Shown: positions 4,800 through 64,000 of the stretch, piece by piece
How the letters are laid out: the number at the start of each line of letters is the position of its first letter
Position numbering within the stretch: position 1 is the stretch's first letter
Source of the DNA: Amphiscolops sp. MND2022
Taxonomy: Eukaryota
Assembly (NCBI GenBank): GCA_964187785.1
Contig: OZ076409.1
Location: 59,026,001-59,090,000, forward strand
Direction: 5' to 3'
Length of the DNA stretch: 64,000 nt
Translations under genes and position numbers: made by a program
Notes under the pieces: generated by a model
The model's database searches: none
Told to the model about the DNA's origin: nothing
The model's input: only the letters and a program-made list of their open reading frames with translations

Positions 4800-5900
4800 G
4801 CAATTCAATGTCCAATCATCTCTTGGTCCATAGAGTAGGGTTTTAACCACGAAAGAGCCTGGTGCTCCACGCGGAGCGTGAATTTTCGACCTGCTAGGTA
4901 CGAATGGAATTTCTCAAAGAAGTAAAACACCGCGTACGTTTTCAGTTTAGGGGCACCATAATTTAGTTCCGTGTCAGTGACTTGCTGCCATAAACGATGG
5001 GTGGCAGGACGGTTTTTCCGTTGTGCTCTTGGTCTTTGTGTGGAATTCCGGCTATGGCTACTGCACTGGCATCCGTATCCATCACAAAACGTCCCTCTTC
5101 GTTCGGCGCAGCCAAAGCATTGGCTTCAGCTAGTGCTTGCTTTACTGAATCAAACGCTTCCTGATGCTTGTCATTCCAGTAGAACTGCTGATTCTTTTTG
5201 AGTAGTTCGTGCATAGGTTGTACTTTGGCAGCGTGGAACGGGATGAAGTCCCAATAGTAATTAGGAAACCCCAAAATGCTTTGTAGCCTTTCTTGGAGTT
5301 TGCTCACTGCTTCTGAATCTGCCTTCAGCTGAAACTACTCGTCCCAAGTATTTGGTCTCTGTGCGAATGAAGTCGCGTTTTTCGGCCCGCATCTTGAAAC
5401 ATGCTGACACAGAACACTTCCTTTATCGTTACCATGTGATCTTCAATTGTTTCGGTGGAGATGACGATGTCGTCGATCTAGGACATGACGACTCTCCCGT
5501 GTCACTGTTTGAATTTTCGTAAGGCTCTGGCGATGGGTTGCTGGAATGTTGCTGATGCATTGCATAGGTCAAGAGGCATGCGCCGCCATTTGAATAAACC
5601 TAACTTGCAAGCGAATGCTGTCTTTCTTCTATCGCACTTTTTCAATGGTATTTGCCAGAAGGCCCATGCTAAGTCTATGCTCGTGACGATTTTCGCATTG
5701 CCAATCGTCGAAAAAAATCATCTTTTCTAGGCAACGGAAACGCCGCGTCTTTCACTTTTACATCCTTTAGCGGCCAGACGTCACAGCAAAAGCGAAGTTC
5801 GACGGATTTTTTTCACCATGACATTTACACTGGCCCATGGCGGTAAGACGGTTGGATTAGACCAAAAGCTAGTAGTTCCGTACTTCTTGGCTCGCTTTGG
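4800..5900 (-). pseudogene. Reverse transcriptase and RNase H of element 1, inactivated
   Basis: 5469-5480 reads *IDD (the Tyr codon of YIDD has become TAG), preceded by MPLDLCNASATFQ. ORF 4963-5307 gives the connection/RNase H sequence FYWNDKHQEAFDSVKQAL..VMDTDASAVAIAG..PIVYGSKSL. Confidence 0.9.
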
Positions 5901-6639
5901 CTGCCTTGTCGGGAGACATACGCCTTGTTCCTTCTCTATGAGGTGTAGCCTCCTGCTCTATTTCGATGCAGTGCTCCGCAATTTTGCATCTCCCGATGAC
6001 GGCTTTATGTTTCATAAATAAGTCATCGTACTCACTTAAAACGCTTGCTAGTTGGTCCTTCGCCTCTTCCCCAGAAAGAAAGGACGGAAGAGAGGTCTGG
6101 GCCAGGAATTCTTTTTAACAATTGAGGGTCTGTTCTTGTGCGTGTTGTTTTGTTTTCTGATAGGCCTATCGCGAACATTTCACTGGACGAAAAGAAATTT
6201 CGAGCGAACGATTTGAACTCAGAGCTGGTGTCATCCAAGTCAACAGTAATAATACGGTTAGCTTGTTCAAATGGAAGTGCCGAGGCCTCGTTGTTCAGCT
6301 AAAATGGGCTCAAACACAAAAGTTGCTAGTCATGCTTTACCGATCACAGTTTTACTTTTGATGACAACCTGGTCAGCGGCAGTTTTTTTTCTGACAGAGA
6401 GGAATACCGTTCCATTGTCTCCGACGGTCGTCAGTGTGACTTCTGAAACGAATAGATATTTGGTGTGCACCCACAGGGGGTTTCATTACGTTGCGGAAAC
6501 GTAAATCATTGGTTTGCTGAGATTTTACTTGGACACTAACTTACGTTCGTTCGAACGGACCTAGTGTTCCCTCTTCGGTGGATACGACAAAGAATGGGTC
6601 TTGGTTACTAACCTCGTGCATGGGCTTAAACTATCGTGG

Positions 6640-7460
6640 TGCTTTCGGGTCTTTGATGGTAACCCTCATGGCCGTTAGGTCCACCAAAACGTTGTATATT
6701 CGCAAAACGTTGTGGCCCAGCAGGAAATCTTCTGCACCCAAATGGTCGGCGATTACGATGAAAATGGTTTTCAGCGTGTGGCCCCCAGCTGGAAACTGAC
6801 GTCTTCAGCATGACCAATGTTATTGATGCTGGTAAACCTGTATGTCGTATGGCAGGAGGCTGAGAGCATGAGAGGAGGCAATCTTTTGGTAAACGCTCAA
6901 AGAAAAACTGGAAACTTCTGAACCGGTGTCGACCATCCCGTACAGTAGGATAGATTCCTGAAGGTTGTGCAAGGGCAACCACCAAGAAGGCCCTTTCATC
7001 TATGCGAGCTTCCCCTTGAGCGTCTTGCACGCCACTACTATTGAATCGCAATTCCTGTCGGCCCAGATATAAACCTTGCTGGAAGTGTCCTTCTAGGACT
7101 ACTACCGCGTCGAATTTCTTACCATCGCCTTCGACGTTGATAACAACGGGGGCGGGTGCAATTGGTTTCACTTTTTGGACTGTTGCCAGTTTTGTCTCAT
7201 CGTCTCTAGTGAAGTGTGGAAGTGGCCTGGATGCTCTTTTATACCTAGTGTTTCTACACAGCTCTTCTTTCAACTGGGCCTGAGTTCGGTTCCTGGGCGC
7301 AACTTCTGTTCTGCTGATAGCATCAAGTGGATGGAAATTACGGTTTCCGCGCAATCAGCAGCGGGCACTTCTAATGTGGTGAGCACTTGTCTTTCACCGC
7401 AGGTGACTATAACCGGGTGCGATGGTCCTAGGGCTACGGAAATTAACCTCACTTGATCGT
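6640..7460 (-). pseudogene. Retropepsin-type aspartic protease region of element 1 (possibly two tandem protease-like units)
   Basis: GMVDTGSEVS with DTG at 6922-6930 and a downstream EDFLLGHNVL motif. An upstream unit ends in GLYLGRQEL. Confidence 0.75.
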
Positions 7461-7529
7461 CCGATTCTACACTATCAAGGTGAGCGGGGGATGGGGCGTA
7501 CCACGCCGCTCGTATTTGTCGCGCGTTCT

Positions 7530-10100
7530 CAGGCGTCAAACATTTAGATGCCGAGTGTCCCGTGCGACCACACTGGATGCAAAAGGCTATTGTTCTTTGT
7601 ACAGGCAATGTCGCTGGAAACACATCGTGATTCATACCGTGTGCTAAGGAAGGACATGTCCATCCTCCAGCAGGATTGGTGTTGCATGAATTTACTTGCT
7701 GTTGTACGGGCTTGCGCGCGCGGTCTTTTTGCGGAAAATCTATGATGAAGTGCGATGGGTCTCTGCGTTTGAAGCACGCTCGCTGCGGTTGCTGTCTATA
7801 GGCCGCAGACTGCTAGGGGGGTTTCGGTGCGTCGGGCGCTGGTGGAGGTACGGTCGGTACTTGATTTTGCTGGTTAGCGCGTGCGGGATGTTGTTGCTGC
7901 TGAGGTGGTATTGTGTAGTTTTCGGAACTTGAGGGCTAGGTATTGCTGAACCGTGAAGCGAAGCGCTTCCACTGTTTGCGGTACCTCACCGTATTGTTCC
8001 TGTGCATACATAAGTGCTAGGTTTCGTTTCAGCTCATTGTTCCGCACTCCTTTGATCAACTTCTGCATTATCTCGTTACGTCTCACCGCTACTTTTTCAT
8101 TCGGGAAGCCTTGGCAACGTAAGCCATCGAATGAATCGAAGTGCTGTACGGAATTGCTGAATGTGGATCTTACTTGATCCCGTGCCGAACCTGCGTGCGA
8201 GTAATGCGAATACTTCCTCGTCGGTGTCCCTTCCGGCCTCAGACTTGTTGGTGCTGTAATCTCCCGCTTCGGTCTCTAGAAACTCAATTATCGGCCGAGC
8301 ATTATCGAGAGGCGTCGGTTTGGCGTGTGCCTTTTCTAGATGCCGCATCAGTAACATCATCCAGCCATCGATGGCTTGCTTTTTGTCTCTTTTGCCGCTG
8401 GTAGCGGTACTACACCTTTAGACATGGCTATTGAAATCGTTTCTGCTAATGCTTGTTGTTGCATAGTTCTAAAAGAACCTGAAATATTGTCTTTACCTTT
8501 TCCCCTGTCTTCTGCGCCGTCTCGGCTCAGCGCTAGGTTTTTCTCGCATTTACTTTCCGCTGAGTGCTAGAAGCCACAGGCCGCGGAGGGATTTCCCGGA
8601 AGGACAATATCGGAGGGTTGGTGTTTGCACTAGCCGTTACCGCTGTGTGGTAGTCTAATTTTTTTGTGATCAGACCGCTCGCCGCGGAGCAGTAAACTCC
8701 TTTCGTCGATGCACCGCGGGCGATTAGGTCAAAGGGCGAGATGTCTGTCAATGGGTCTGTTCCTGCATCACTCGAATCGGCATGTTCTACTCTTGCTATC
8801 TTGTTTGCCTTGGTAGACCTTCTTTTGTAAGTGGCAGTCGGTATAAGCTTGGGTTGCTTGGCTTGCTCTCCACTAGGCGGAGCAATCTTCCTGTCCCTGG
8901 TTTGAGCTGGGGGAGGTACTGCGCTGGTGGAGGGTTTGCTCGTCGAATTATGTGCCACCTGTAATGGTGAAGGACGTGTTTGTGCCGCAGCGGTTTGAGC
9001 AACTACTATTCTCTTCCCTAGGATTAGGTCTTGCATTGTCGTCATCAGCTCCACCATACGGTTGTTAGTACCCGACGTTGCATGAGTTCTGCCATGAGTT
9101 TCAGATGATCGTTGGCTTGGCGATCCCTCTTTTCATAATGGCTGACATCTCAGGCATGCGTCTATTAGCTAGAATCTCACGTTGTCTTAGATCATCGATT
9201 GAGGCAATCGACGCTTCTAATCTTTCTTGTCTCGTACGTCCTTCCGCTTGTATTATGAGTCATCAGCGCATCTCATCCATATCTCTCATGATCACATCAG
9301 TCCGCAGGGCATGCTCATTGTTCTTTTAAGCGAGCCGCGATTGTACTTGTGTAAGCTTGGCTAGGCTTTGTCTGAAATCCTCTCTTATGGACTTCGACTC
9401 TTTTATGCCTTAAGTGATGGTCGAGTCCACGGCGGTCACAATACTAAGTCTAGAACCCGGCGTGTGGTCTAACTTTTCCGTTTTGACGAGGCGGATGCTA
9501 GAGTCTGCAATCAGCGATGTTCGAAACGTGAATCTTAATGGATTGTCTTCATCGGGGTTTTTCTGCTTGTCTGCTGACCTCTTTTGGGATTTAGTCAGTG
9601 TGTTTCGTTGTTTTTGTCCTCGCTGCTAGTTGATGCGTGGGAACCAGAAGGGTCCCTTTGCGTTGTCCCTTTTGGGCGCGCCTCCTCAGGGGTTGAACTT
9701 GCAGTTGTTTGCGGTATCCACTCATTGGTGGTAGTTTGTTCATTTCCCAGCCCAATATTGGAATTCAGCCAAGCATCAAAGCTAAAGTTGATGACCTCCA
9801 AAGGATGCCAGGCATTGCTTTGGCTTGTTGCTTCAGCACTATCCACTGCATTGGTACTGTCGGGGGAAACGATGATTCGGGCTTGCTGAGGCCATCTCAG
9901 TGTTTTGATTGGATACGTTGTTTGACATAATTTCTAAAAATATGTTCGCAATCATGGTATCCGTTGCATCTTCGGTACGGGCGTGCAAACTGGAACATGT
10001 CTCTACCTCCCTTGCCAATGAATTGGTGGCATGGAGACTATTGGGCTCCCTAAACGACTCATTTATGGGTTGTAGGTATCCGCACTCACTCAAGTCCATG
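7530..10100 (-). pseudogene. gag region of element 1 (long low-complexity/coiled-coil N-terminus, capsid-like core, CCHC knuckle), fragmented
   Basis: ORF fragments 9839-10099, 9595-9846, 8533-9057, 8097-8360 (EEVFALLARRFG), 7874-8086 and the CCHC in 7270-7635. Confidence 0.75.
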
Positions 10101-11013: not shown

Positions 11014-13981
11014 TTTGCAAAATTCGTGAAATTTATTGCGAAAATCAGCAAAAAAATGAGTTTTTTGTCAATATGCACGTCTTGGAAAGGTGAAAACCAA
11101 GTAAAGACACTGATAATTTTTCAATTTCTATTGAAGATGACTACAAAATGTCTTGGCAGTAGTGTTTTGTACTACCAAGCAAAATATTAGGGTTTTTGGG
11201 CTACTCTGAAGTCTCACGTGAAAGTTCTTGAAGCTTTGCGCTTGTCAAATTTGGTCCAAAAGGTCAATATTGGCTATTCTTCAGGAAAATTTGCCAAATT
11301 TTTAGTGTTTTTGCAATTTACCCAAACAACTTTTTCTGGTCATGACTTGATAGGTCTGACCGACCGTTTTTATTGCATTCCTATTGGCCGTACCCTAATC
11401 TGAAAAATTTCGAATATTAAAAGTCACAAATACGAAAATCGAGCAATATCAGGTGTTCAGAAAACAATCATAGTACCCTGTGGGCGTTTTTCTCAGCTAG
11501 TGCTAGAAAGTACCCCTGTTAAAAAGCTTTGATAGCTGCTAAAGAAAAAAAGAACAAAGTAACTAAGATGATTCCATGATTTTATAAAATTCTCAAAGAA
11601 ACGTCCATGCATTAAAATGCAACGTCCAGTTAGCAGCGTACATCTTAGAAGTGGGACAATGCCTAGATTGCTTGAACAGGAGACCAGTGTCTTACTACAA
11701 TCTAGACATTAGTTTTTTATCCTAAAATGGTCTCCTAAGGGGACTTTTCATACGTCTAAGGAGGTTCCTCAATTAGACCGGCGATGGGCCGGCACTCGCA
11801 AACTCCGGCCACGTCCCACAAGCCTGTAAAAACGAATCCTAAGGTTCCAGAGAGTTCCTACATACTCCCGAGGTCCAAAAACACTGTCGAGCTGAAATAC
11901 ATAATTTTTGGGGAATAATGTCTAAATCCACCAAAATAGGGATCTAATAGAACCACTATCATTGCAAATTTGCCAAACAACATTACCAAGGAAGAAACAA
12001 CCAGGAAATAGCACGTTTTGAGTTCCTCATCCAGTTTCCAGAGTTTTGGGAATAAACCACTGGAGTGTCATCACTCTTTTTGGGTCATCTGAGACATTTT
12101 CTAGAGATGGATGGCACAACACAGCGTTTTGTCAGTCTCTGGCGTTCTTTTTCTGGATTCTGGATACTTTTCTGAGGTTTGGTAGGGGGGTCTTCTTGCG
12201 TTCTCATTTGCTTCTTTTTGATTTCAGGGACCTGCCAGGTCGGCCATTTTGAATCGCACACTTTTTTATTTTTCATCGATTTTTTTTATCAAGCTGGTTA
12301 TCAACTGGTTGACGTTACAAAACTTCAGTGATTCGATTTACTTTTATCAAGCTGCTGTTTATCAAAATGCATCCTAAGTTTAGCGGCAATTCTGTGCCGC
12401 AACGTTTTGCAGGTTTCATTAAGACGCCGTTCTAGTTTCGAAAGCAGCTGAGACCTTCATCAGTTTAAAACTTCAGTCACGATATAACTTTCAAAATAGC
12501 GTCATATTCAGCGCTCTATTTGACTAACGGTGATTACATAGAGTACTTATTTGAAAAACTTACGCGTGAAAACAAATGATCGCGGCGGTGAAGATGTGGA
12601 ATTAATTCTTTTCAGTTTCAGTTCAAATACTGGAGGCTTCATTGTAATCTTGCAAATTGCTTCCATGCATGATCCCAAAATTTTCCATGTTTTGTAACAA
12701 ATTAGCCTGCATGTTTTCATGCACTTGTAAAAAGTTCAAGCAATCTTGACTAGGCATAACTTTCAAACTCTATATTTAGTTGGAGTTTTTACTAAGCTAT
12801 AGATTTTTGACTTTGTTTGAATCAAGCAATGTTGCCACGGAAAATTATTATTTCTCCCCACGAAAACATGCTAAGTACCTTCGAGGGCGATTTTTCATAT
12901 TCTATGTAACTGTGTAACCACGCAAACTTCTAAACTTTATACAACAACTGCAAAGTTTTGTCAAAATTTGAATTGTTCTCCTTTTTCAATTTATGCCTTG
13001 GATTTCCTTGGTGAAAGAGCTTAAAGCTCTACGAAAACTTGCTAAAATTCACAAAAACAAAAACACAAAAAAATTGCAAGTTTTTTTCACTTTTTAATAT
13101 TCTTTTGGCTATTTTGTTGCTTTGGTAAATCAAAATTATCAAAATTTCTTCCGATTGGTATGCTTGAAAGTTATTTTTTCCTTTGATTTTTTCGATTTTT
13201 CATATCCGCGAAATCGTTCAAATCTTGTTCAAAATTTGCCGAAAGTGTGGACAACTCCTTTTTCGGGAATGTTTTATGTTTAAGGATTTCCCATTTGAAA
13301 AACGGAATGATAGCTAATTGTTTCAACGCTGAGCTTGGTGAACGATTTAATTGACGAAAACATTTGTCGGACATTGAGAGTAAGACTTTTTGTAATTTTG
13401 GAGTTTTTTGTAGCCATTTCGAGGAGTTTTAAAAAACTTTTTTCTAAAAAAACCTACTGAATAACTCAATAGCTTATTAAGTTGAGGTCAGCAGGTGTTT
13501 CAACGTTAGGACTGTGTTACAAAAATTGCAACTAAATGGTCAAAATGAACATTTTTGAAAACTTTGACTGTTTTTGGGTCAATTTGAAAAACTCCACAAA
13601 ACTCTATAATTTCGTATCATAACTATATTTGTGACAGCTGAATTCTGTATACAAAACTCTATTAATTTGGTATGAATTTGAAATGTGGCGAATGTTGAAA
13701 AAAAGCAGCAGTTCGTAATTTCCTATTCCCATATAAAAAGATGGGCGAAAACTAGTCGATTATTTGCCTCAAAATTGAATAAGTTCTAGCGGAGAAGCGA
13801 TAAATAGTCCTTGAAAATTTCGGATCACAAAAGTTTCGAATAACTTTGTCCTGTTATTCTTCTTCGTGACTAGAAAAAAGCAAGTTTTCATTTTTTCAGT
13901 TTTTTGCATCAAATTTATCCAGAAAGTGGTCGCGCCGTTACAATATTTTCGGCGCGCGTCGTAGAAAGGTATGCCTCCGCA

Positions 13982-34000: not shown

Positions 34001-34860
34001 CATTGAGTCTGGTTATTCATGAGGCTCTTGTTCTTTTGAGGAGTCAGCAAGAGCCATATTATATCAACACCTGCCATGACATGTTTCGCACTGGAAACGT
34101 TTCGATGACTTAGTTCAGGCAGCCGACCAAGGGTCCTTTTTTTCTTTGCCAAAATGTTTCAATCCATGCCAAGTCGGAAGTTTATGAGCTGCCTTGGTTT
34201 CACTCTCTTCCGTTAAGAAACTTGGTGTATAATTCTAAGGCTGCAGGCAACGGTTGAAACCCAATTCACAATAGACGGAGTTGAGAAAAATAGTTTTGGG
34301 ATCGGACTCAAAATACTCCAATGAACAGGTTGATTGAAGCACATTGTGACCAAATTTCCTTTTTACGTCTCGATAATTACATTTCCTGGGTTGTTACAGC
34401 AACGGGCTGTAATTGACGGTACAGAGTTTCCAATAAATCAACGTTGATGACGTCATTTTCAAAAAATGACTTTTTTCACGTAACCTTTGACATCAAGACA
34501 GTGCCAGCGCCACCGGAACGAACAGGCATTAGTTTGAGCTCATCTACTTCATTGCCAACGACTGCCTTTGCTAAAATGCATTACTGATCTTTTGTCAACC
34601 CTTTACGTTCAACTATTTTACAAGAAGTTCTGAGTTCCATGAGTGCAAGCGGAGTCACGCAAGGATTTCGCCTTTGCAAAAGTAGTTCAAGTGTGGACTT
34701 CGAATCCACTTGTTTGGAGAATTCGTTCAACATCAGTTTGAATGCATACCTTGCTTTTTGGCAAAATTTCAGTCGTTGCAGTTCTTTCGAGATCGATTTG
34801 TTTGATTCAATGATGGGTTTTGTGAGAATTTTGGTTGAAGCTTGACAAACGTGAAGTGAG

Positions 34861-35460
34861 AACTGAAACAACGATCTTTATAATTCTGTAACTGTCGACA
34901 CTTCCATTCAGAGTGGTTTCTTTTCGGATAAAAAACAAAGTTAGCTTTTGGCAACAACCATTTCTCAAATGATTGGTGCCTCAGTGAGAAACATGCAACA
35001 TAGATAAATATACGAGATGGTTTTTCTTTGCTGGCAAAGCAATTCACTTGCACTACACTGTAGTTTAGGATTGATCACAGTTACAGTCGAACATGCACTT
35101 GAACTACCAGTGGCAATTCCTTCAGCTTCTGGTTTTGTTCACGTAGCTACAGGAGATACGTTTCGACACTTCAGGGCTTTCCTGAGAAGCCTATTTTCTC
35201 AAGTATATTTTTCAGCAACGTGAATAGAGTATAGTCGTACCTCGAAAGCAGTCCAAACTGTTGGCGAGTACGCAAATACCTTTCCGTATTTATCAATCTT
35301 CCAATTGAGCTCTCACAACTCCCAGTGGTTTTTGAATTATACACTCAAGAGTCTTAAGTGCATCTGGGTTCATTTCCCCTCAGTAAGCACCCCAAAGCAT
35401 TTTGATATTTTAAGGAGTTCGTTTTTGAAAACAAGTTTTATTATTTAAAAAAAATTGAGT
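34861..35460 (+). repeat. Uninterrupted paralogue of the interior of the piggyBac-like element (contains both empty insertion sites)
   Basis: Matches 37872-38197 + 39862-40025 + 46014-46127. It has a single CCTGA at ~35181 and a single TACAC at 35340-35344. Confidence 0.9.
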
Positions 35461-38197
35461 CAAAAGACTCACAACAGCAAATTAAAATCCTACTTTAAGA
35501 AATAATCGAATATGAGCAATTTGATTGCGTGATCAAATAACGGAACCAATGTTGAGGAACAATTAGGAACCAACACGTACTTAGTCGATGTTAGAAGCAA
35601 AATTCACCAAAAACGAACACGCAGAATTTCAAATGATATATCTTCACAGGCTTGCCAAAGCTAATCAAAGCTTTTGATCTCGCGACTGCCATATACAGGT
35701 TTTAAATGGAGGATTCCTAGGCTACCATGTCATGAGCACTCACATAGGTTAGTCTCAAAGTTTTTCTCCATGAAAAGTTTAACTGTGTTGTTTTCGAAAG
35801 AAGACAGACACTTTTTGTATATTATTTTTTTCATCACTTTCATTTTGGGTATAATCAAGTCTTGGACTTCGCAATAGACTCCAGTCCTCGGAAACTTTTA
35901 GACATGTTGTAGTTCAGTTTTTAGTCTCTTAAGAAAGGCACCGACTAGAGTCACGGCTTTTCGTCAGTGTTTTTTTTCGATACACCTGAACTGTCCAAAA
36001 TAGTCCTACAAAAGTTCGTCAATTTTAGCAATGCTCGATATAACGTATACCGGATATAACGACACAACCCATACCGGATTTAACGCGGACCGGATATAAA
36101 TTATACCTAATTTAACGTTTTTTGTTATTTCGACGAAGTGACAGATTCCGTCAATTTCTATCAATTTTGTTCAACTTGCAGACAACTTTCTTAGATTATA
36201 CATAACATCTAAAACGTACGTAAAATCGGATAAAACGTTTTCAAAGTTCGGATATAACGTTTTCATTTCTCGTATAACGTTATCATTTTTTCCCCAAAAG
36301 TTCATATAATTTGCGTCGAATGTAAAGCTTTAGGGTCAGGTTGTCAGTACTATAAGACTTTTTGGATTTTCGAAAAATCTTCATTCAAGAAGTGATACTA
36401 AAACCACGTCCCCGGGGTAAACTTTTGTGCCTCGTTTCGGCTTTGTGAGACTTTTTTTCGGAAATTTTTTAAGGTCTGCAAAGGGCCCCCCTTCAATTTT
36501 TTGATCTTTTGCAACAGAATGGATGTTGAAAAATCCGAAAGGGTCGCTCCTTTCAGTGTTTTTCCTCATTTCTGAGACTTTTTTGAAAAATGTTTAATGT
36601 CTTCAAAGGGTCCCTCTTCAATTTTTTTGTGATATTTTGCATCACAATAGATGTTAAAAAAATCCGAAAGGGGCGCCAGTTCGGTCCAACTTTTGGGTTT
36701 TTCGGGTACTGTAGAAGAGAATACTTGACACTTTGAAGTCATTTTGCTCTTTTTGAGCCTTAAATATGGAAATATTACATACTTAACAGATGGAAATATG
36801 CCTTTTTTCAAGAATAATTAAAGTATGTTTTGTTACAAAACATCAGATTTTCCAATTTTTTGGTCTTTTTTCTACAAAAGATTCGCCGGCCGAATTACCC
36901 TATTCAGCGACGCTGTTTCCTTATTTGTTCGTTTCTTTTCGATAATGAAAAATTTGCCCAACAACACAGTTTGTATACACAAGTTTAATATTATAGAAAC
37001 TGGATTGAAGAAATCAGAAATAATTATGGAAGATTGCAGCTGAATCTGAAAACTGCAATGTGGGTCCGTGTACAGTCATAAGCGCCCAGTCAAGAACGCT
37101 ACACTACAAAGCGCCTCGCTAATTTTTGAGCTGGTTTCTAATTAAATCTAATTGAATGTGTTCAAACAAAATAATATTTCACCATTAATACCACGCTTGC
37201 CATTTTCACACCTAACAAATTCCAATTGAAATCGACTTAAATTGTGGGACAGTATACTGCAATTACCAACTATGAAAGGCAGACTGAATTTGCCAAAAAT
37301 TCATTCGAATCGATGAAATTCATACACTGCTAAAAACGAAAAGTTAGTTTCAATTGATTGAATACTTTCAGATTAACTAGGTTGTTCCATTTCCATAATT
37401 TTCATAATGCTTCCATATTTTCCAATCATTTTTTTGCAATAAGTTATGCCTGTGATAAAACCAATAAGTCCTTCTTTCGTGTTTTTGACGATGTGAGACT
37501 TCATGCATATAAGAACAGCCCCATGGGTCTAGCGATTCTAATCAAAGAATCAGTATAACAAAGTTAACTTTTCTTAACCCTAAATAGACCAGGAAGCACT
37601 GGCTTCGGACTTTGAGCCAAAACTTTGCACATCTCGTGTCTCTGACTGCATTTCATCACGTTTGAAAACATGCTAGGTCCACTTTGACACAATCTTGATA
37701 CCAGTGGGATAGAGTGGCCACAAACGAAAACTTGAAAAACGGAGAACCTTCGCTGAACTTTTTTCGATTTTTGGCCCCGTTTTCTTGCTTTCCGAGACAT
37801 CATGTCAATATTCCGTGAAAAGGCGTGCAATGCTATGTAATATCGTCTAAATATCTAATTCAAGAATTGAAGAACTGAAACAACGATCTTTATAATTCTG
37901 TAACTGTCGACACTTCCATTTAAAGTGGTTTCTTTTCGGATAAAAAACAAAGTTAGCTTTTGGCGACAACCATTTCTCAAATGATTGGTGCCTCAGTGAG
38001 AAACACGCAACAGAGATAAATATACGAGATGGTTTTTCTTTGCTGGCAAAGATATTCGCTTGCACTACACTGTATTTTAGGATTGATCACAGTTACAGTC
38101 GAACATGCACTTGAACTACCAGTGGTAATTCCTTCAGCTTCTGGTTTTGTTCACGTAGCTACAGGAGATACGTTTAGACACTTCAGGGCTTTCCTGA

Positions 38198-39861
38198 TGT
38201 GATGATCGGCCCTTTCCTGTCTGTTTTCATTTATGATGATGGTTTCGTCTAAAGTGTCTTCAGCAATCCCAAGAGGAGTGTACGGTTGTCTTAATTCACA
38301 CATTTCAGACGGATAGAACCGGTCATCCTGATTCTTATTTTTATCTGATGTTGAATTTGATGCGTGTTTGTTCCTGAGACCCTTATCTTTATAGTTAGAA
38401 GGACCAGGCTGATTGTTCTCGGCATCCTCTTCATTACAATGTGGGTTTGGTTTGTTCTAATCTCCTTAAGTATCTCTTCGAATTTGTTTTTCAGTTGCTC
38501 TTCAATCTGTGACATCTTGTCGTTATTCTGTTCTTCTAGGCTTTGTGAAATAACTTCTATCTCGTTGCTTAATTGAGAAGGTTCTGTTAGTTCGCTGCCT
38601 AAGTTCCTGTCAAGAATATTATTAACATTTTCAGAAACACCAACTAAAGTCGCGTTACCTTGAGTGAAGCTTGTTTCCGAAGTATTTTCGTCTCTGTCTG
38701 GTGATTGAGATTCTACTCTCCTTGATCGTCTATTTCTCCTGTTTCCCATGATGAAAACGATGTTAGGTGCAAAAATCTTTGAATTACAAAGATATTTTGG
38801 TGAAATGAAAATGTGGAAGTTATTTTACAGGGGAAGGAAACTGCGAAGTTTGTGGGTTATGAGTTGTTTGTGAAAATGAGTGACTGCTCTGAATGTGTGA
38901 TATTTTTTGAATGATGGTTAGAAGAATGGTTTTTTGATGATCCGCCTTCAACTGATCTTATTGGGTACTATTTTTAGTTACATGACTTTCAATTTTATGC
39001 AAATCATCATAACGTCGTGTTTCTAGGGTCAAATGTTAAAAATATAATATTGCGTCAGACTCCTGGAAGGTCTAAATATAGCACTGTGACTTACAACATC
39101 GTAGCACTGGAAATCCTGCAAATTATGCTGTTTTACATCCTATTGCAGTATATGCTGTCTCATGAAAACCTCATAATTCAGTATAATTTTATCAACAGAA
39201 ATAAGAATCTTTATACTGTTTTTAAGTTAAAACGTCATACTGTTTCTGTCAAATTCCCACATATGCTGTTCCTACATTGAAACGTCATACCGGGGTTTCT
39301 GCATATGCTGTATCCCATCTGAACCATCATACTGTTTCTGTCAGATTTCCGCATATGCTGTTTTTAACACATGTCATCATGCTGCATAATCAGTATCAAA
39401 TAAGCGTACGAATTCGTTATGCTGATTTTTAAGTGGATCATCGTGCTGTTTTTGATTGTTTTCCCCATGAATGAACTACAAATAAATAAATGTAGCAAAG
39501 ATATATAGGACCATTGGATCTAACTCCTTTCTACCATTTAAGATGATAAAACAAAGATTTAGCACTGTTTTGATAACTTTGACGTTACCTTTCCAGTTGT
39601 TTTTCAATTGATCAACACACCCTATGGGTGAAACAATAACAACAATAACGACGTTCAACAATCATCATTTTAGATGAAATGTACAACTAAAAGCAACATT
39701 ATATCAAACGAACAATAACAAGCATTGTTTAAGTTTAAAGTTTGAAATGTTTATCAAGTCTTCGTCCATATTTGGGTAGACAGCCTTCATGATGGGTAAG
39801 CAGCGTTGACTGCTTCATCGATGTTGCACTCCGGACATCTCGCATGGGTAAGCCGGCGACA
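38198..39861 (-). mobile_element. Solo LTR, 1664 bp, with 5 bp TSD CCTGA and an internal ORF
   Basis: Termini TGTCGC...ATCACA on the minus strand. CCTGA at 38193-38197 and 39862-39866. The empty site is visible at ~35181. Confidence 0.92.
38199..38749 (-). pseudogene. LTR-embedded ORF (MGNRRNRRSRR...), one frameshift, open up to the LTR end
   Basis: ORF 38291-38749 plus a shifted frame EDAENNQPGPS...HASN...ENRQERADHH. It aligns by eye over its whole length with the ORF at 62889. Confidence 0.85.
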
Positions 39862-40028
39862 CCTGAGAAGCCTATTTTCTCAAGTATATTTTTCAGCAAC
39901 GTGAATAGAGTATAGTCGTACCTCGAAAGCAGTCGAAACTGTTGTCGAGTACGCAAATACCTTTCCGTATTTATCAATCTTCCAATTGAGCTCTCACAAC
40001 TCCCAGTGGTTTTTGAATTATACACTAT

Positions 40029-40205
40029 TGTATTCTGCGAGATTATCTCAATTGAAAACGTTTTTAAAATAACAATGCTTTTTCCAGCTCAGAATGTATC
40101 ATAATGAGATCAGGTTTCAGATATAGAACTCAATGTTTGTTTGTAAATACGAACTAAAAATGGCAACAGTTGTTTATCAACAGTTCTCAAATAAGCTATT
40201 CTTCA
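40029..40205 (-). repeat. 3' LTR of element 2 (177 bp)
   Basis: TG...CA termini. Nine mismatches to 45837-46013 by manual count. Preceded on the minus strand by a PPT, AGAGGGGGAAA (40206-40216). Confidence 0.95.
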
Positions 40206-43200
40206 TTTCCCCCTCTGTAATTGGATGAGAGGTATCCAATTGATTACCGTTGCCGTCCAGGTTAATGCTGCGGTCGGATGCCGTCCACGTCTTGGTGCAG
40301 TATCCGGGTGTCCTTGGTTGGCGTTGTTGTTTTCCATTGGCTGGAACATTTGTGGTTGTGAGCAGATTACTGGTTGTCTTCGCTTTCCCGCTCCGGCATT
40401 TCTTCTGTTGTCTCCAGTAGTGGTGACAAGTTTGGACGTTTTGCGGTGTTTCCTGTAATCAGAATAGTTAACTGGATTTTTTAATCTAATGACTGGATTT
40501 GTTTTCGTTAGTCGTTTTGACCGGCGTAGGTTAGTTTCTTGTACGTTTTCTAAACCTTTATCAATTTCGGTGCTAGAGCTAAGGTTACTTGCTAATTCTA
40601 GATCTGAATCAATAGTATTGGATACCTTACCGTTTATGTCTTTAATGTGGAGGTATTGTCCTGACTGTTGAGTGTCATTGATCACCTGTTCTATGTCGGA
40701 TTCCGACATTTGTTCTGCGTTGATTGTGAGGGGCCTCATTGGTTTATTTTTGTTTGTTCCCGGTTGTTTCTCTGGTAATGCTGACTTTTCCCAGTTTCTT
40801 ATAAATCTGGGTTTTCCAAATGTTCCGCATTTTCGGTTGTTTGGTGTTTCTGGGCTGGTGTCCAATTGCTCGTCTTGTGATTGGGATGGCTCGAGAGTTG
40901 CTGGTGACTTGTCTTCTTTGCGAGCAAATCTTCCGTTCGGTCCTCTTGGTCCGGTTCCTCTATTGGAAGTATCCTGTTCAAATGGTGTAATTGGTTTACC
41001 GATTAGTTTACAGTGAGTAATTTTATTTTCGGCTGTAGTTACGGTATGGTTAGTTCCCTTCACTGCTGTTTCTAATTGATCGGAGTAGGGACTTCCGAAT
41101 TTTGATTTTGTGTTTTTCCGAAGAACTGAAACGGGTATTTACTAACCGTCTTGGTTGACTTTCTCTTTTGTTTCATAGGTAGATGGTCGGAACTACCGCC
41201 TTCTCCACTGAATGTATAAACCTGTAGGGTTTCTGATTTTGCTGAAACGGAATGGTTATTGGTTAATTTTTTGATTTCTTTTAATTTTAGCATATTACTC
41301 AGCTCTGTGTTCGGTTCTCTACCGAAGTGTAATTCGAATGCCGTTTTGCTCAGTCTAGAGTGTGGGGTTGTTCGCATTACTCCTAATGCTAGATCAAGCG
41401 CTTTTCCGAATGGTTCGCCCACTTTTATATTGGTTAGTAAGTTTTCTTTTAGTGTTCTCACCCCCCGTTCTACTAAACCGGTGGGAGTGTGTAAATACGG
41501 TGTCCCGTATATCAGCGAGAAATAATTCTTTTAACAGAATTCTCTGAACTAGTGACCCGTAAACGCTGATGCTTTATCGGTTCTGAACGTTTTGTATGCC
41601 GTTTAGTTGGATGTATTGTTGAAAAAAATTTACCGTCGTTTTTCCGTCCGTTGATTTGCATAGACTGGCTGCCGGCCGTTTACTAAACCGGTCCAAGGAG
41701 AGTAAAATGTAAAATCTACGGTTCTCTTCCGTGATTGGTCCAATGAAATCCAATTGAATTTCTTCGTTTGGTGCGCTTAATGGTGGTAAGCGATTTTGTT
41801 TCGTTTCAGGTATATTTGGTTCAAGATTCTTACCGGAAAGTTTGCACGGTATGCAGCTGTCGCATTTTCTTTGTATTGCTCCAGATAGTTTCGGCCACCA
41901 GAAGGGTTTTGCCGCCATTGTCATCTTGTTTATGGCAGGGTGGCCCTTGTGCAGTAGTGTGATGACGGTTGTTCGTAAATTTGTTGGGACGATAATTATT
42001 TCTTCGAAGAATACTAGTCCGTACCTTGTGGATAGCTTCCGTTTGTACTGGTTGTATTCTTCTGGGATGTTGTCATACTGTTTTCTTTCCAGACAAACGA
42101 GGGTTTTTAACAGTTTTGGATCGTTTTTTGTCTCCGTCTTTAATAATTGGAGGTCCGTGGCGAAATCGTTTTCGGTCTCTCTGACGGAATTTTCACGGTC
42201 CCAGTCATTTGGTTCTAGTGCTTGTATCCTCGGGGCGTGTCCCAGTTTAATGTATTGGACGCTTTTAACTCCGAGGTAGTTCGCCCAATTCATTGTGGGT
42301 ACCTCCAGCACCGACGGTGCCATTTCCGAGTCACTGGAGATCTCTCCTTCCTCCATCGGTGTCTCGTCCGATGTATAACTTGTTGTCGGACGTGCTTGGG
42401 ATGTGCCTTGATTATCGTGAGGGATAAATCCACCTTGGAAATTTCTGGTTTCTTTGAATTGCCAGTCCGGGAAGTAGTTGGTTTGATTTTGCCGGTTTCT
42501 AACCTCCACGGCAGGGCTCTCCAATCGTTTTATGATTTCGGGCAATTTTTTTCGATTATTTTCCTCTCTCCACGGAGGAATTTTGGCTCATGGTACTTCT
42601 TCCATTTGCCATTTGATAGTCGGTAAATTCCCTTCTTTACGATGTTTCGCCAGCGTTCAATTAAGTTGACTGTCCCCTGAGACGATTCGATTTTCTCGAG
42701 ATTGTCAATGATTTTGGCGTCCATTGTCATTAAAGTAACGTCACTGTTTGGAGTGCGAATAAGGCTATGAATGGCGTTTTGTTCACGCGTGTTGTCCGAT
42801 GACCGGTGTTTGTTTGCTTTTGTCAAGTTTGCTGTTCCGTTCGTTGATTGTGATTGGTTGAAATGGTTGCTAAGGCAACCAAAGTTTGAAACAAAACCGT
42901 AGTGCGGTGCTATGCTGTTAATGACATATTCTTTTTCGTATACGTCATCGTTTTGCGCCGGTGCGATTGGATTTCTACTCAAGTAATCGGTAAGCGCTAG
43001 ATGTTTTCCGGCGATATGGTTTACGTTCATTGTAAAATGTGCTAATCGGTCTAGCCAGCGCGTTAAGCGTGCTCTGTATATTTTGTTAGAGCGGTTGCGT
43101 TTTATTAGCTGTTCGAGAGCTTGGTGGTCCGTTAAAAGTTTGACGGGTTTTCCGTAGATGTAAAGACGGAAGTGTTCTAAACCCCAAATAACCGCTAAAA

Positions 43201-45790
43201 ATTCCAACTCGTTTATTGCATATTTTTTCTCTGTGTCCGATAGAAATCTGCTTGCAAATGCTATCGGTTTTAAATCCACATTATCTTGTTCTTGCCAGAG
43301 AATGGGCGCCTAATCCTTTTGTGCTGGCGTCTGTTGTTATGGTGTTCGGTCGAAGGGAGCTATAGTGAGCAAGGCACGGTATTTCCGTGATTTTGCGTTT
43401 TAATCGGTTAAATGCTTCGGAGTGTTCCGTTGTCCAATTCCATTTAATTTTCTTTTTTAACAACTCTCTCATTAAGTCCGTTTGCGCTGACAAAATTTCG
43501 ATGTATTTTGACAAATACTGAATTGCACCTAAGAAGAAATTAAGTTCTTTTTCGTTTTTTGGTTCTTTCAGTTCTTGTATTGCTTTCAACTTGTCTTGTA
43601 ACGGTCTGATACCGTTTTGGTCAATTTTGTGACACATTCTATGTCGGACTTGAAAAATTTTGATTTGTTTGCGCTAAGTCTGTAACCTGCGTCTTCTAGT
43701 TTAGTTAATACCTCGGTTTAGTTAACGTTTTTGTTGTTCCTTTGTCCTTTTTGTGACGATTTGTATGTCGTCTAACCACGCCGGGTGTTGGTTCTCCAGT
43801 GTTTGGTCAATCTTTTCTTGAAAAATGGTCGAAATGTTCGCCAGTCCATAAAATCCTTTTAGGTATCTATAGTATCCAGTGAAGTTGCCTCCAGTTATTG
43901 CGAATATACACAGGTCTTTTGCGTGTTTTGACAGTTGCATTTGACCGTATGCATAATCCAGATCCAGTTTCGATATCCAAATTAAGTCGGTTTCTCCGTC
44001 GGCTATTTCTCTTGATATTCGGGATATCAATTCCTCCATGTTCGGCATTTGTGCTTTTCTCTTCACGGTTATTTCGTTTAATTTCCGTGAGTGTAAAACG
44101 ATAATAATCGTTTTATTTTTCACAACGGTGAAAACTGCTGGGCTTGCGAAGCAATTTTTGTCTATGTTGGCTGCTCTTTCTACATGCCCTTTTTTTCAAC
44201 TTTTCTATTTCTTTACCAACTGCTGGTTGTAAATCTATCGGTACCGATCGGCCTTTCTGTTGTATCAGTTTTGCATCCGGTTTTAGCTGAATGTCTACCT
44301 CTATTCCCTTTACCGTTTTATTTTCGTGAAACAGTTTAGTAAAGTTTCTTTTCTGCTCTGTCACGTCTGGATTTTCTTGGATATTTTGTATCTTCAGGTT
44401 AGATTTTTCTGTATCCAGTTTGATTCCCAATTGATTCATCCAGTCCAGTCCAAGAAGTTGATTTGTCCTTTATGTTGTTATTAGTAGTTCCAGATTTTTA
44501 GTTTCTCCGTTAATTTCTACTTTTTTAATTTTAAAGTTAAAAGTTTAAAGTTTTAAAATACTTTAATTTTCTACATTTTTCCTTCGAACTTTATTTTGTT
44601 TATGTTGACATCCTTATACTCCGTGTGTAGGGGATGTATAGGTGTTGTATGGTTGAATAATTGTTTTGGTACCAGTGTGACCGGTGATCCACTATCAATT
44701 ATGAATTTGTTTGGTCGGTTATTGACCAATGCTGTGGTAGTGAAGAATGGTTGTCCGTCTTTGGTGTTCTGTTTTGTTGAATGGACCATTCTAGTGATAA
44801 AGTGTATTCTTTTTGTCGACCATTCGTCTTCTTCTGCACTGGAAGCGTCTGATTCCGGGTGGATGTGTTTTATTCTTCGGTCTATCTTTTGTTTAGTTCT
44901 GCACAATTTTGCGTGGTGACCGATCTTTCCGCAGTTTAAGCATTTCTTTGCTTTTGCCGGACAATCGTGAAGCTTTCTCCAGTTTGGTGCTCCGCATCTG
45001 ATACAGTCGATTTTTCTGAATTTATTTGGTTTATCTTTTTCCGGTTTTTGGTAGTTTCGTTTTCTATCCACGTGTTTTATTCTTGTTTCTTCTTCCGAAT
45101 CTCGTGATTCGTTCATTTTTTTGTACATCTATTCGTGGTTTGTGTCGGTTATAGCTTCCACCGACATGGAAGCTTCTCCTTTTTTGATTTTCTTTTTGAG
45201 ATCGTTGTCTCCAGTTGTTTTTCCGATGACTGAAAGGAAATTTGAGGCTAATAATTCTGCTGCTTTTATTTTTCGAATTCGCAGTTTTTTTCTATTTCCA
45301 GAATTCGTTTCCAGGTTTCGGCTGCCGATTATCCCGGTTCTTTTTTCAGGTTGAAGAAATCGGCCCTGCTATGATGTTTGTTTCGCTCAGGGACAAAATG
45401 TAGTCTGAACAGTGCGTATAGACGGTACAATGGTAAAGAAGTTGGTTCTCTTTCTCTTACCGTCTTCGTCATTTCTGTTAATGCTGACTGCCCGGTTGCC
45501 CAGATAAAGACGTCTTTTGTTTCCTTTTCTAGTTGGTCCCTGTATTGTGGCAACACTTCTTTGGAGTTTGTCATCTTTGATAAGTCCAACTCTCGAGTCA
45601 TCTTTATGTATTGGGTAAATTTTCTCCACCAGAGCTTTGCACTGGTGTGGTCATTTTTCTCCATGATTGGTATGGGTAACTTTTGGGTAGTCCATTCTGG
45701 GTCGTCCGTTCAAACGATCGTGTGGGGGTATTGTTTGGTAGCGAGCGGCTGCTCGTTCCTCCCATGGAGTTATTTGGTTCGTCTTCCATT
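40203..45790 (-). pseudogene. gag-pol of element 2, broken by frameshifts and stops
   Basis: ORF pieces 45329-45664, 44571-45128, 44113-44439, 43722-44123, 43281-43637, 42530-43279, 41574-42545, 41072-41461 and 40203-41063 lie in gag-PR-RT-RH-IN order. Confidence 0.93.
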
Positions 45791-45823
45791 GTAGCGAAGT
45801 TTTTTCTGATAGTTCAGAGTGTT

Positions 45824-45833
45824 GACTGCGCCA
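45824..45833 (-). promoter_or_regulatory. Primer-binding site TGGCGCAGTC (tRNA-Ser-type)
   Basis: Lies 3 nt inside the 5' LTR and is complementary to a ...GACTGCG-CCA tRNA-Ser 3' end. Confidence 0.8.
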
Positions 45834-45836
45834 TTT

Positions 45837-46013
45837 TGTATTCTGCGAGATTATCTCAATTGAAAACGTTTGTAAAATAACAATGCTTTTTCTAGCTCAG
45901 AATGTACCATAATGAGATCAGGCTTCAGATATAGCACTCAATGTTTGTTTGTAAATAGGAACTAAATATGGCAACAGTTGTTTTTCAACAGTTCTCAATT
46001 AAGCTATTCTTCA
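45837..46013 (-). repeat. 5' LTR of element 2 (177 bp)
   Basis: Direct repeat of 40029-40205, followed by TACAC. Confidence 0.95.
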
Positions 46014-46309
46014 TACACTCAAGAGTCTTAAGTGCATCTGGGTTCATTTCCCCTCAGTAAGCACCCCAAAACATTTTGATATTTTAAGGAGTTCGTTTTT
46101 GAAAACAAGTTTAATTATTAAAAAATTAACTAGGTTGTTCAATTTCCATAATTTTCATAACGCTCGAAATGGTACCAATATCCATTTAGGGTTAACTGTC
46201 CAAAATTTTCTTTTTGTAAAACCTGCTGACTGTTAACGTTGAGTAAGTCTAAAGGTTTTCAGTGTACTAACTGTAATCAGCGAAATTTGCATCATTTGTA
46301 TTTGTTCAG

Positions 46310-60720: not shown

Positions 60721-61934
60721 TGATCAGTTTACATTTTTTTACACTTTTCTGTGTCTAAAATTTCCATAATAGGCTTTCGTCCGAGTTCAAGACGTGCCCT
60801 GATATTTAGAACTTTCGCAAGAACATAGCTTCTTCTGCATTAGAACCAATTCTGGATGGAAAATGAAGAAAAAGGCCTCAATCACTTTTTGTGTCACAGT
60901 GACTAGAAACATAAAACGAGAGACAAGAAGGATAATTCTGTACGTGAAAAAAGGGGAAACAAGACGTCAAAAACGTGCAAAAAATTCAACACTTGTTGCC
61001 TCACTTTAGGAATTTCTCATGAAACAGTTTCATACTTCTCCATTTGAAAGTTTATATAATTCTATGCGGAGAAATCTGGAGCTAACATACGTTAAGAAAT
61101 CGATTGTATTGACTTTTTCTGTTTTTTGTTCTACGCGGAAAACTGCAAACAGTTTTTCCGAAATGCGTACTGCATTTGGTAGTTATTTTTTGGAGCTTAA
61201 TGAAAAACAAATTTTAAACAAAAAGGTCAAAAAAGAATTATACGATTTCGATGAAATTTTCTGTCATTTTGCAATTTCAGTTTTGCAGTAGTGCAATTGC
61301 TTTTCGAAACCCGTACTGATTGCTACATGTTTCGATCCTGAGCCTATGCATTTTTTATTTAGGAAAACAATGGCAATTTTGAGAGTATTTGGGGAAGATA
61401 ATTGAGAAACTTCGGATTCTTCGACGCTTTTGTTCTCATCCCATTTTCTTTCCGAAGTAGTGTTTTGATCAACATACTTTTTCAACGTTCTCATGCCATG
61501 TTCAAAACTCCTGAATTGAATAAAAAACTGACACTAAGTAGTCAAGAAACAAACTTTTTTGTCTTTTTGTGTTTTTGGGGTGTCTTTGGGGCCTGATTTC
61601 TCAATAAGATGTAGTTATTACTTCGGAAACGACTACTGCATATCGGACATAGTCTTTGTTGAGTGCTTCGACCACTTTATGCCACGCAATTGCTCAAAAG
61701 GTTCATTAAAAAACGCAATAAAACCTCAAAAACTCAAATTTCTTCTATGATTTGGGTCATTTTGAGGTATTTTTCTTCAGTAAACTTCTCGTTCAAAAAA
61801 ATGTCACTGTCCCGGTCTTTCGAAAGCTATTTACTCACCAACTCTTCAATTTTCGAATGAAAAATTCCTAAAATTATAAAAATTTGGAACTTCTTGATAA
61901 TTTTATTAAGTTGATGTATTTCAGAAACACATGT

Positions 61935-63456
61935 TGTCGCATCCATCAAGATGCGATGGTTCCGTGGTGCAGCTTTGAAGAGGAACAGATGATAGACTCA
62001 TTTCAACAAACTCTCTAAAACTCTGCTGAACCCGTTTTATATGATGTCTTAAAACTCAATGTTTTTTAGTCTCGAAAGTCATGTAAATATGATATTTATA
62101 ATATGGTTGTTGTGAATAGACCTTCATCATAGTGCTAACATACCTTCATTGCTTCACTGAGGACCCTTGTTTTAATAGTACAATGAGTTATCTCATTGTC
62201 TAATCATATATTCTAAAGGTCCTGATGCGTCTAAATTCGTAATCAGATAGTAATCTACTTCTTAGCAAGTACAATTATGCGGTACTATGCGGATTGAAGT
62301 GTGACGTACACTCGTCATTATGCGTTTTTACTAGTATCATTATGCGGCATTATACGTTTCAAGGTGCAACGAGTATGCGGCATTATGCGCTTTTCATAAA
62401 AACTTTATACGGCATCCTGCGGAACTAGTAGTGACGCATACTCGTTACTATGCGGTTCTCGCAGGACTTGTTAAATAAACCCAGCACGTGTTATAATGTT
62501 ATCTAGAAGCCATTTCAAATACAAAAGAAGGCCATCTTAAGAGATTCCCAGGGTTCATTAGTTTCTTTCCCCAATCATACTTTTATGATGTCATGTAGAT
62601 GTGCTATTTTTATAATATAACGTCATTGGACGTAATTCTATTTTTGTCCCGATTTCATACAATGACTCCCATAAAAAGGAGTGTCATGGTTTTTGGATTT
62701 TTGTTCTGAGTTTTCAATCAGAGAGATTCATTAAGATTCCAACCCTCATCAAGTGCAGTTAGTTTCTAAAACAACTGTAAAACTTTGATTTCGTCACTGT
62801 AAAACTTCATCTTTGCTCTTTTTTTTGGGATACAAGAATAATTCAAATTCTTTCCCAAAAGTTAGAAAACATTTTCACCTGAGATAACATGGGAAATAAA
62901 AGAAGCAGAAAGTCTAGAAGACTTGAGACACCGTCCCCAGACAGAGAAGTGGAGGTAACAGAAATAGAAACCCCTAAAACAGGTAATGAAGCTTTAATTG
63001 ATCTTAGTAATGTTGCCCAAGGAAATTTAGGTGAAAATAGCTCTGAAAACCAGTTAACCGAACCTAGTCAAATAAGCAAAGAGATGCAAGTTTGGACCCA
63101 AATCATGGAACAAAAGAACAAAGATAAGATTGAAATGATGAGAGAAGAAATGGAAAACAAACTTGAAGCGATTCTAAGGGAAATAAAGTCCAATAAAAGT
63201 GCATCTACAGTAACCAATCCTAGGTCGGATATAAACGAAATGCGAGAAAACCAACCTTCGGGATCCAAATTGAGTAAATCTATAGGAGTTCATGCATCTA
63301 ATAACGAAAACTCTGATTCCGAGAACGACGACTATCCTCTTAGAGCATCTAAAATGAAGGACTTGAAACATCCTGCTAAACCCTTCTTTGAAACTGAAAC
63401 AGACTTGGTCCAAATAACGCTTTCAAATGAAGGGTCTGAACAAGAGGATTATCACA
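61935..63456 (+). repeat. 5' LTR (1522 bp) of LTR element 3
   Basis: Starts TGTCGC..ATGCGA..TCCG..GTGCA and ends GATTATCACA, matching both termini of the TSD-defined solo LTR 38198-39861. Followed immediately by a PBS-like motif. Confidence 0.82.
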
Positions 63457-64000
63457 TGGTGACAGGAGCCAACCGACAACTCCATAGACAGAGCTCACAA
63501 AAGCTAAATGATACAATTGGATCCCATGCAGACCAAAATACAACGAACTCAATAACACAACCACTTGATCCAGTTAACCAAATTGCTCTTGCAATAGAGA
63601 AATTGGCCAACAAAAACTCTCTCCAATCACTTTTTCACCCCAAAAATACACTCACCTTCAATGGGAAAAATGAGAAAAACGAAATATCGAATATTTTGAG
63701 GACTTGTTCCATACAACATTACGAATGCAACCAAACTTAACAGAAGAAATGAAAATTAACCATTTCCACGCCCATCTGAGAGGTTTGGCACTTAAACCTT
63801 CAAAAACATACAAAGAACTCACACCACGACTTTGGAAGACATTTTAAAAGTCTTTCGCCGAAAGTATGTAAAACCAGAGTCCAGTGCATCTGCTAAACAT
63901 AGATTTCATAGACTCTTTTTCGATCCAGAAAACCAAAAACTTCCGGACTTCTCAGAAGAACTCCAAGAAAGTTCTGAAAAAGCGTTCGGGGACAATGCCC
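62889..64000 (+). pseudogene. LTR-initiated ORF fused to a gag-like protein of element 3 (frameshifted after ~63680; runs off the window)
   Basis: ORF 62889-63740, then shifted frames EYFEDLFHTTLRMQPNLTEEMKINHFHAHLRGLAL and TLEDILKVFRRKYVKPESSASAKHRF, which show a retrotransposon gag capsid-like pattern. Confidence 0.8.
63457..63468 (+). promoter_or_regulatory. Primer-binding site TGGTGACAGGAG (tRNA-Leu-like)
   Basis: Directly after the LTR CA; one mismatch to the tRNA-Leu-type PBS TGGTGTCAGGAG. Confidence 0.7.

Follow-up and report, generated by a model that had tools for sequence, protein, structure and literature searches.

In the established scheme of reverse transcription, the U5 portion of an LTR ends where the primer-binding site (PBS) begins, and the stretch from the cap to the PBS is copied as minus strong-stop DNA. 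MMTV sag, HIV nef and foamy virus bel are separate U3 genes read from the 3' end, and Ty1 gag starts inside the 5' LTR with about a dozen codons there. According to the excerpted text of PMC4974528, the PBS of Saccharomyces cerevisiae Ty1 lies inside the GAG frame, and the Ty1 restriction factor p22 is a C-terminal part of Gag made from an internal start. In the Candida albicans element Tca5 (Ty5-like, Ty1/copia), the ORF opens 382 nt into a 685-nt LTR, an 'unusually deep inset' for which the excerpts of PMC4139406 call the true start unclear; our own arithmetic on those figures gives an LTR-borne part of ~300 nt, or ~100 codons. Among Ty3/gypsy elements, the N-terminal Gag exons of Caenorhabditis elegans Cer1 are common to the spliced CERV product (excerpts of PMC10309623), and the plant Retand/Tat elements have a long region running from pol to the 3' LTR, with antisense ORFs and tandem repeats (excerpts of PMC11963269).

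The element described here is a Ty3/gypsy (Metaviridae) LTR retrotransposon lying at the right end of a 64,000-nt stretch of DNA (the window), and the first third of its gag is carried by the LTR. The features of this element and of a related solo LTR in the window are as follows.

35181..35185, +: duplicated empty insertion site with a single CCTGA, serving to verify the ends of the solo LTR independently
38198..39861, -: solo LTR of family B with a homologous ORF (ATG at 38749) and a frame change near codon 105; target-site duplication (TSD) CCTGA at 38193-38197 and 39862-39866
38599..38658, -: 60-nt in-frame intron-like segment of the solo LTR, AG/GTAACG...CTTAG/G, read from sequence
61930..61934, +: left target-site duplication CATGT; the same 5-mer follows the 3' LTR at G000:C1:59103769
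61935..63456, +: 5' LTR, 1522 nt, of a 15.8-kb Ty3/gypsy element, assigned from the LTR pair and from PR-RT-RH-IN in a close copy
62689..62888, +: leader without an ATG, likely 5' UTR; the closest ATG upstream is at a distance of 203 nt
62755..62760, +: initiator-like GCAGTT with its A at -132, a candidate transcription start suggested by CAGTY conservation
62889..63456, +: LTR-borne first 189 codons of gag, with a basic N-terminus, a disordered linker, one long helix and a second disordered linker (codon selection; AlphaFold model of a close copy)
62889..62924, +: Lys/Arg-rich start with 6 K/R among its first 14 residues; each of the five families has 4-7 K/R, dN/dS 0.03-0.14 where computable
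62983..63030, +: 48-nt in-frame intron-like segment AG/GTAATG...TTTAG/G, T-rich, putatively spliced; of 24 aligned gags, 23 keep the GT and all 24 the TTAG
63066..63194, +: predicted long helix, residues 60-102, coiled-coil-like; pLDDT ~76-84 over most of it, the most conserved LTR-borne block
63457..63468, +: primer-binding site TGGTGACAGGAG, read as M-V-T-G and complementary to tRNA-Leu(CAG) plus CCA (pattern search, ARAGORN)
63457..64000, +: internal gag, a linker followed by capsid, frame-broken in the window copy (sequence reading, fold search)

The first-pass annotation of this DNA placed the start of gag at the ATG at 62889, 568 nt inside the LTR and 189 codons from its end, and had the frame cross the junction as EDYH/MVTG (the slash marks the LTR end), with an ATG made from the last A of the LTR and the TG of the PBS. 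Both statements are borne out in the window sequence. The LTR begins with TGTCGC and ends with GATTATCACA, and its boundary is supported in three ways: the solo LTR together with the empty site, the element's own 3' LTR, and the ends of genome matches, of which 14 among the 40 listed stop at query position 564-580, corresponding to the LTR end. The 3' LTR lies ~12 kb past the end of the window (G000:C1:59102248-59103768); it is 96.4% identical to the 5' LTR, has the same end base, and is followed by the TSD CATGT. Frame changes near 63690 and 63800 disrupt gag in the window copy.

In a close copy, Gag is 558 aa long and has a zf-CCHC match over the Pfam cut-off and a Ty3_capsid match below it, and Pfam gives the order of the pol domains as PR-RT-RH-IN. 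Membership of the Ty1/copia superfamily is excluded, the order not being PR-IN-RT-RH, and the best PDB sequence match is Ty3 Gag-Pol (E 7.7e-47). A fold search with the Gag model puts PNMA2, Arc and retroviral capsids on top, with probabilities up to 1.0 but an E value of only 0.026. The LTRs end in TG...CA, and identical 5-nt TSDs flank 22 of 26 elements of families A and B. Complementarity of the PBS to tRNA-Leu(CAG) extends over 12 nt in family A and 11 nt in family B, and ARAGORN called two of six loci; a tRNA-Leu-like 3' end also occurs in a large tandem array at G000:C8:35587798-35638465 onward, with 863 matches genome-wide. A conserved but impure AAAAATGC(G/A/T)GGAC-type stretch, a possible polypurine tract, precedes the 3' LTR. 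Gag ends with GATTTAAAC plus stop in all five copies shown, overlapping pol, and the TTTAAAC motif at the gag stop is presumably a -1 slippery site. Two related pol proteins, P0188 and P0195, match PF00692, which we take to be dUTPase.

The region separating pol from the 3' LTR has further coding content. A sense ORF of ~310-390 aa, ORF3 (L014:1836-2882 (-), with homologues in L141-L156 and L130), ends ~40 nt inside the 3' LTR; it has a CxxC motif near its end and, considered as a possible env-like ORF of the errantivirus kind, aligns as low-complexity sequence and had no match in a Pfam search (~340 aa). A CAGTY motif of its own, 50-70 nt upstream, suggests an internal promoter. Three conserved antisense coding segments are also present in this region, past the end of the window, in families A, B, C and D (L141-L150, L130, L136, L156). 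They resemble the exons of one spliced gene, a candidate recognized because GTAAGT-type donors follow segment 1 and (T)TTCAG/TTACAG acceptors precede segment 2. Segment 1 contains a W-C-x2-C...H zinc-finger-like motif and segment 3 is helical. A hAT-transposase origin is our guess for these segments; they have no Pfam match, the fold of exon 3 found no Foldseek match, and its comparison with Hermes transposase (Z 5.2) is within background. Short tandem arrays with ~65-nt and 32-nt offsets flank the antisense region (L011:9096-9413 and L012, element positions ~12600-12850).

The gag layout is conserved across a clade. In all 38 elements from five families (A 16, B 10, D 3, C 4, E 5), with RT identity down to 70%, gag starts inside the LTR, 397-592 nt in across families, and the frame passes the LTR end and the tRNA-Leu PBS as x/MVTG; LTR-borne codons number 132-197 per element. 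The ATG is 550-580 nt inside the LTR in all 26 A/B elements compared, 565 nt in three of three family D elements, 592 nt inside a 1.79-kb LTR in family C (RT 74% identical), and 397 nt inside a 2.48-kb LTR in family E (RT 70%). One junction column is common to all 24 A/B elements with an open gag; because a long 5' frame was the ground for choosing 20 of these 26 A/B elements, their openness is no independent test, which the dN/dS analysis is. In family C, three of four elements have a 5' copy that stays open through the junction, and all four have the start in the 3' copy; three of five family E elements are open; the 5' N-terminus is broken in three of these nine C and E elements. Full-length elements were recovered and both of their LTRs carry the ORF, as the first-pass annotation anticipated, the 3' LTR of the window element included, and the 3' copy is open to the LTR end in 22 of 26 A/B elements. 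The clade is probably wider than five families, since other Gag representatives, known as proteins alone, have 114-223 residues ahead of the MVTG motif. With the first 190 residues as query 131 relatives were found, with a Gag profile 2148, and with RT at least 120. One element, L021, is a mosaic when compared with L013 and L085, with an LTR ORF 93-100% like subfamily A1, an internal gag 89-96% like L085 in most windows, and a switch near the PBS.

The LTR-borne codons are under purifying selection. Nei-Gojobori dN/dS is 0.08-0.16 in eight of eight within-family comparisons (upper 95% bound <=0.27), far below 1, and 0.29-0.37 in two comparisons between families A and B; the capsid gives 0.01-0.05, and some sub-region ratios are undefined because dS is saturated. 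Third codon positions differ ~3x more often than first or second positions in the LTR-borne frame, and gaps across subfamilies are whole codons. The best conserved parts are the basic tip, which may be NLS- or RNA-binding-like, and the helix. The AlphaFold model of a close copy has a mean pLDDT of 50.7, with a single helix at residues 60-102 and predicted disorder at residues 1-59 and 105-229, which places the LTR end and the PBS within a disordered linker. The earlier proposal that the LTR encodes a selected basic and helical Gag extension is thus upheld by dN/dS, by the presence of the ORF in both LTRs, and by the predicted helix. The A, B and D peptides are 33-37% identical to one another. 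No similarity was detected between the C and E peptides and A, B, D or each other, and both keep the same design; the LTR peptides of families A, B, C and D have no Pfam match above the cut-off, and an Atlas search gave scores of only 0.78.

The solo LTR provides a second view of the ORF within the window. Its peptide is 42% identical to that of the window LTR over 108 aa (E 6e-18). It had been proposed that the two peptides align end to end while their non-coding DNA is barely alignable. The latter holds, the two families aligning poorly there; of the former, a one-frame alignment of ~105 codons stands, and extending it end to end needs a frame change because the HASN...DHH end of the solo-LTR peptide lies in another frame. 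The solo LTR is in one copy only of a local segmental duplication (window 34859-35345 and 37871-40026; 97-99%). Beside it, at 40028-46014 (-), is another degraded LTR element with 179-nt repeats (95% identical) and a gag-like frame within the bounds of these repeats, and a GC-richer region at 1540-9057 (-) contains fragments reading like another retroelement.

Transcription likely starts ~120-200 nt upstream of the gag ATG, as suggested by the leader, by shared motifs, and by a recombination switch. None of the three outcomes that would refute the first-pass proposal was thus seen, the third (a start downstream of the first ATG) being judged from these indirect signs. No ATG occurs in the first 100 nt upstream of gag in 16 of 16 elements, and ATGs per 100 nt number 0 and then 0.38 in the first two bins vs 1.8-4.9 further up. 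The CAGTY motif, presumably an initiator, is at -128 to -141 in all nine A/B elements tabulated and at -172 in family D, and in family E TATAAAT lies at -152, followed by TCAGTC at -117. Element L087 resembles L091 at 99% through the 3' internal region and on through U3 as far as -165, and at 92% from there, as expected if U3 comes from the 3' end of the RNA and R-U5 from its 5' end; L103 and L113 switch at -205. This recombination support comes from two or three of 25 pairs, the others switching at +250 to +295, far upstream, or weakly. No conserved AATAAA was found to mark the end of R, and no poly(A) signal could be placed.

The explanation we strongly favor is that these elements form a Ty3/gypsy clade whose tRNA-Leu PBS sits inside gag, 130-200 codons past its start, leaving the first third of gag in the LTR. 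The frame runs in the order ATG, LTR end, PBS, capsid, zinc knuckles, and TTTAAAC at the gag stop. With the PBS inside gag, all coding sequence upstream of it falls in the LTR and is likely copied to both ends within a long R-U5 region; the minus strong-stop DNA would here span ~0.5-0.8 kb, and its sequence would be present in both LTRs. The LTR-borne codons would form an N-terminal, matrix-position extension of one full-length Gag, likely for localisation or RNA contact and for self-association, and the 3' and solo LTR copies would be by-products lacking a stop of their own. Selection on full-length Gag suffices to account for the conserved LTR-borne codons; since a single RNA is the source of both new LTRs, selection acting on the 5' copy covers the two.

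It is possible, if somewhat doubtful, that the LTR ORF also serves as the first exon of a spliced product, which would add to this explanation rather than replace it. The donor at ORF nt 95 could be joined to an acceptor 48-60 nt on, giving Gag minus 16-20 residues, or to a more distant exon, giving a regulatory protein like Cer1 CERV. This donor, AG/GTAAT, is the sole conserved GT column of the LTR part (23 of 24 A/B and 3 of 3 D elements), and it is one of the two invariant columns among 13 conserved four-fold columns there, vs 0 of 71 in capsid/NC. In-frame GTAA...TAG/CAG segments (TTAG or TCAG) of 48, 60 and 51 nt are found in families A, B and D, and in 58 further LTR copies the donor is kept in 55 and the acceptor in 51. 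Third-position difference within the segment is 0.25 and 0.12 vs 0.43 and 0.37 elsewhere, and its synonymous divergence ranks 12 of 519 windows, the 11 lower ones all being at the att/PBS junction. The segment is 33-38% T vs 18-21% in the rest, with another equally T-rich window in two of eight copies, and family E has GTAAGT at a similar place in five of five elements.

Other observations weigh against splicing. A genome search with one probe fitted to A1-type copies found no precisely spliced copy, and the spliced form is absent among 116 proteins with the N-terminal region; one shortened protein, P0109, was considered and rejected, its deletion not matching the splice sites. The acceptor has no pyrimidine tract of the kind that the antisense introns of the element show, family C has no clear counterpart, and family E has no conserved acceptor. 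The constraint on the segment could instead reflect RNA structure or a promoter signal. Fusion of the LTR exon in frame to ORF3 upstream of the ORF3 ATG was likewise discarded, only 1-4 codons being open there in several copies. The host, probably an animal, has a 1.07-Gb genome, and its myosin genes contain introns; those searched in order to size host introns gave no usable small ones. We put at slightly under an even chance the use of the conserved donor-like site by the splicing machinery, whether to drop the 16-20 residues or as a U1-binding control signal. A broader proposal, tentative and on balance unlikely, is that the LTR is a self-contained coding module in which a promoter and start codon are combined with a basic peptide, a mini-intron under regulation and the helix, and in which splicing would switch between two Gag N-termini and a solo LTR would act as a first coding exon splicing or reading into host sequence.

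The first-pass annotation also raised the prospect of two Gag isoforms, the longer starting at the LTR ATG and the shorter at the CA/TG junction ATG, and this we find improbable. All 38 elements do have the junction Met in frame, families C and E place a purine at its -3 position, and a capsid plus NC protein starting there would be a normal-sized Gag. However, the junction ATG follows automatically from the CA of the LTR end and the TGG of the PBS in the gag frame, one other frame meeting TGA; its context in A, B and D is cacATGG, and between one and seven in-frame Met codons come before it. The same annotation proposed that truncated peptides from 3' and solo LTRs are selected as a built-in dominant-negative copy-number control like Ty1 p22, which is quite improbable. 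Each LTR does contain the helix, an ATG followed by G at +4, and a likely promoter; the 3' copies are largely open, and the copy number is high (150 of 150 scored in both of two sets). Against this, the LTR has no stop, so that the 26 3' copies examined read 2-45 codons into the flank (mean 16.8), the solo copy in the window is frame-broken, and selection on the 5' copy already explains the conservation; the LTR peptide is also without capsid or NC, unlike p22 as the excerpts of PMC4974528 describe it. That the LTR frame is a chance or vestigial one, untranslated, has a negligible probability, contradicted as it is by the dN/dS values, the codon-position pattern, the whole-codon gaps and the ATG-free leader.

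The layout with the PBS inside a single selected gag, which we prefer, has several consequences. Throughout a successful gypsy clade, gag can hold the PBS ~200 codons past its start, implying strong-stop DNA of 0.5-0.8 kb and ribosomes that cross the primer site, and the balance between translation and priming becomes testable. Annotation restricting gag to the sequence between the LTRs would lose a third of these proteins. Solo LTRs bring a start codon with a frame free of stops, together with a donor-like site and a likely promoter, which makes the clade a candidate origin for new first exons of the host genome. With a candidate spliced antisense gene and an extra sense ORF, these elements are unusually complex.

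Comparison with the known systems tempers the novelty suggested earlier. Exact-phrase searches of the open literature found no gypsy clade with 130-200 selected LTR codons, and Repbase, Dfam, closed papers and supplements may hold such families. The claim was overstated, because the Ty1 PBS lies inside GAG (excerpts of PMC4974528) and in Tca5 ~300 nt of the ORF lie within the LTR (excerpts of PMC4139406); what stands is the larger scale and the different superfamily. As in Ty1, gag starts in the 5' LTR and its frame runs through the PBS, here in every element compared; unlike Ty1, these are Ty3/gypsy elements, with 132-197 LTR codons rather than a few and a tRNA-Leu rather than an initiator-tRNA primer. 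Tca5, as excerpted, is one low-copy copia element, whereas this is a high-copy gypsy clade with dN/dS ~0.1. Like MMTV sag, HIV nef and foamy bel the LTR encodes protein, but the frame is the 5' part of gag, and ORF3 is the closer analogue of those genes. In contrast to Cer1 and CERV, the search here for a join to ORF3 in frame was negative, and the excerpts of PMC10309623 do not place Cer1 exons in the LTR. Window-type elements resemble Retand/Tat in the long region running from pol to the 3' LTR, with antisense coding and tandem repeats; they differ from those plant elements, which have a TRP28 domain, in antisense segments without a Pfam match, and the excerpts of PMC11963269 make no mention of gag within the LTR for Retand. 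What is new here is the conserved splice-donor-like site and the 48-60-nt in-frame intron-like segment of the LTR ORF, as read from sequence. The layout itself is real, clade-wide and selected, and is that of Ty1 and Tca5 at larger scale in another superfamily.
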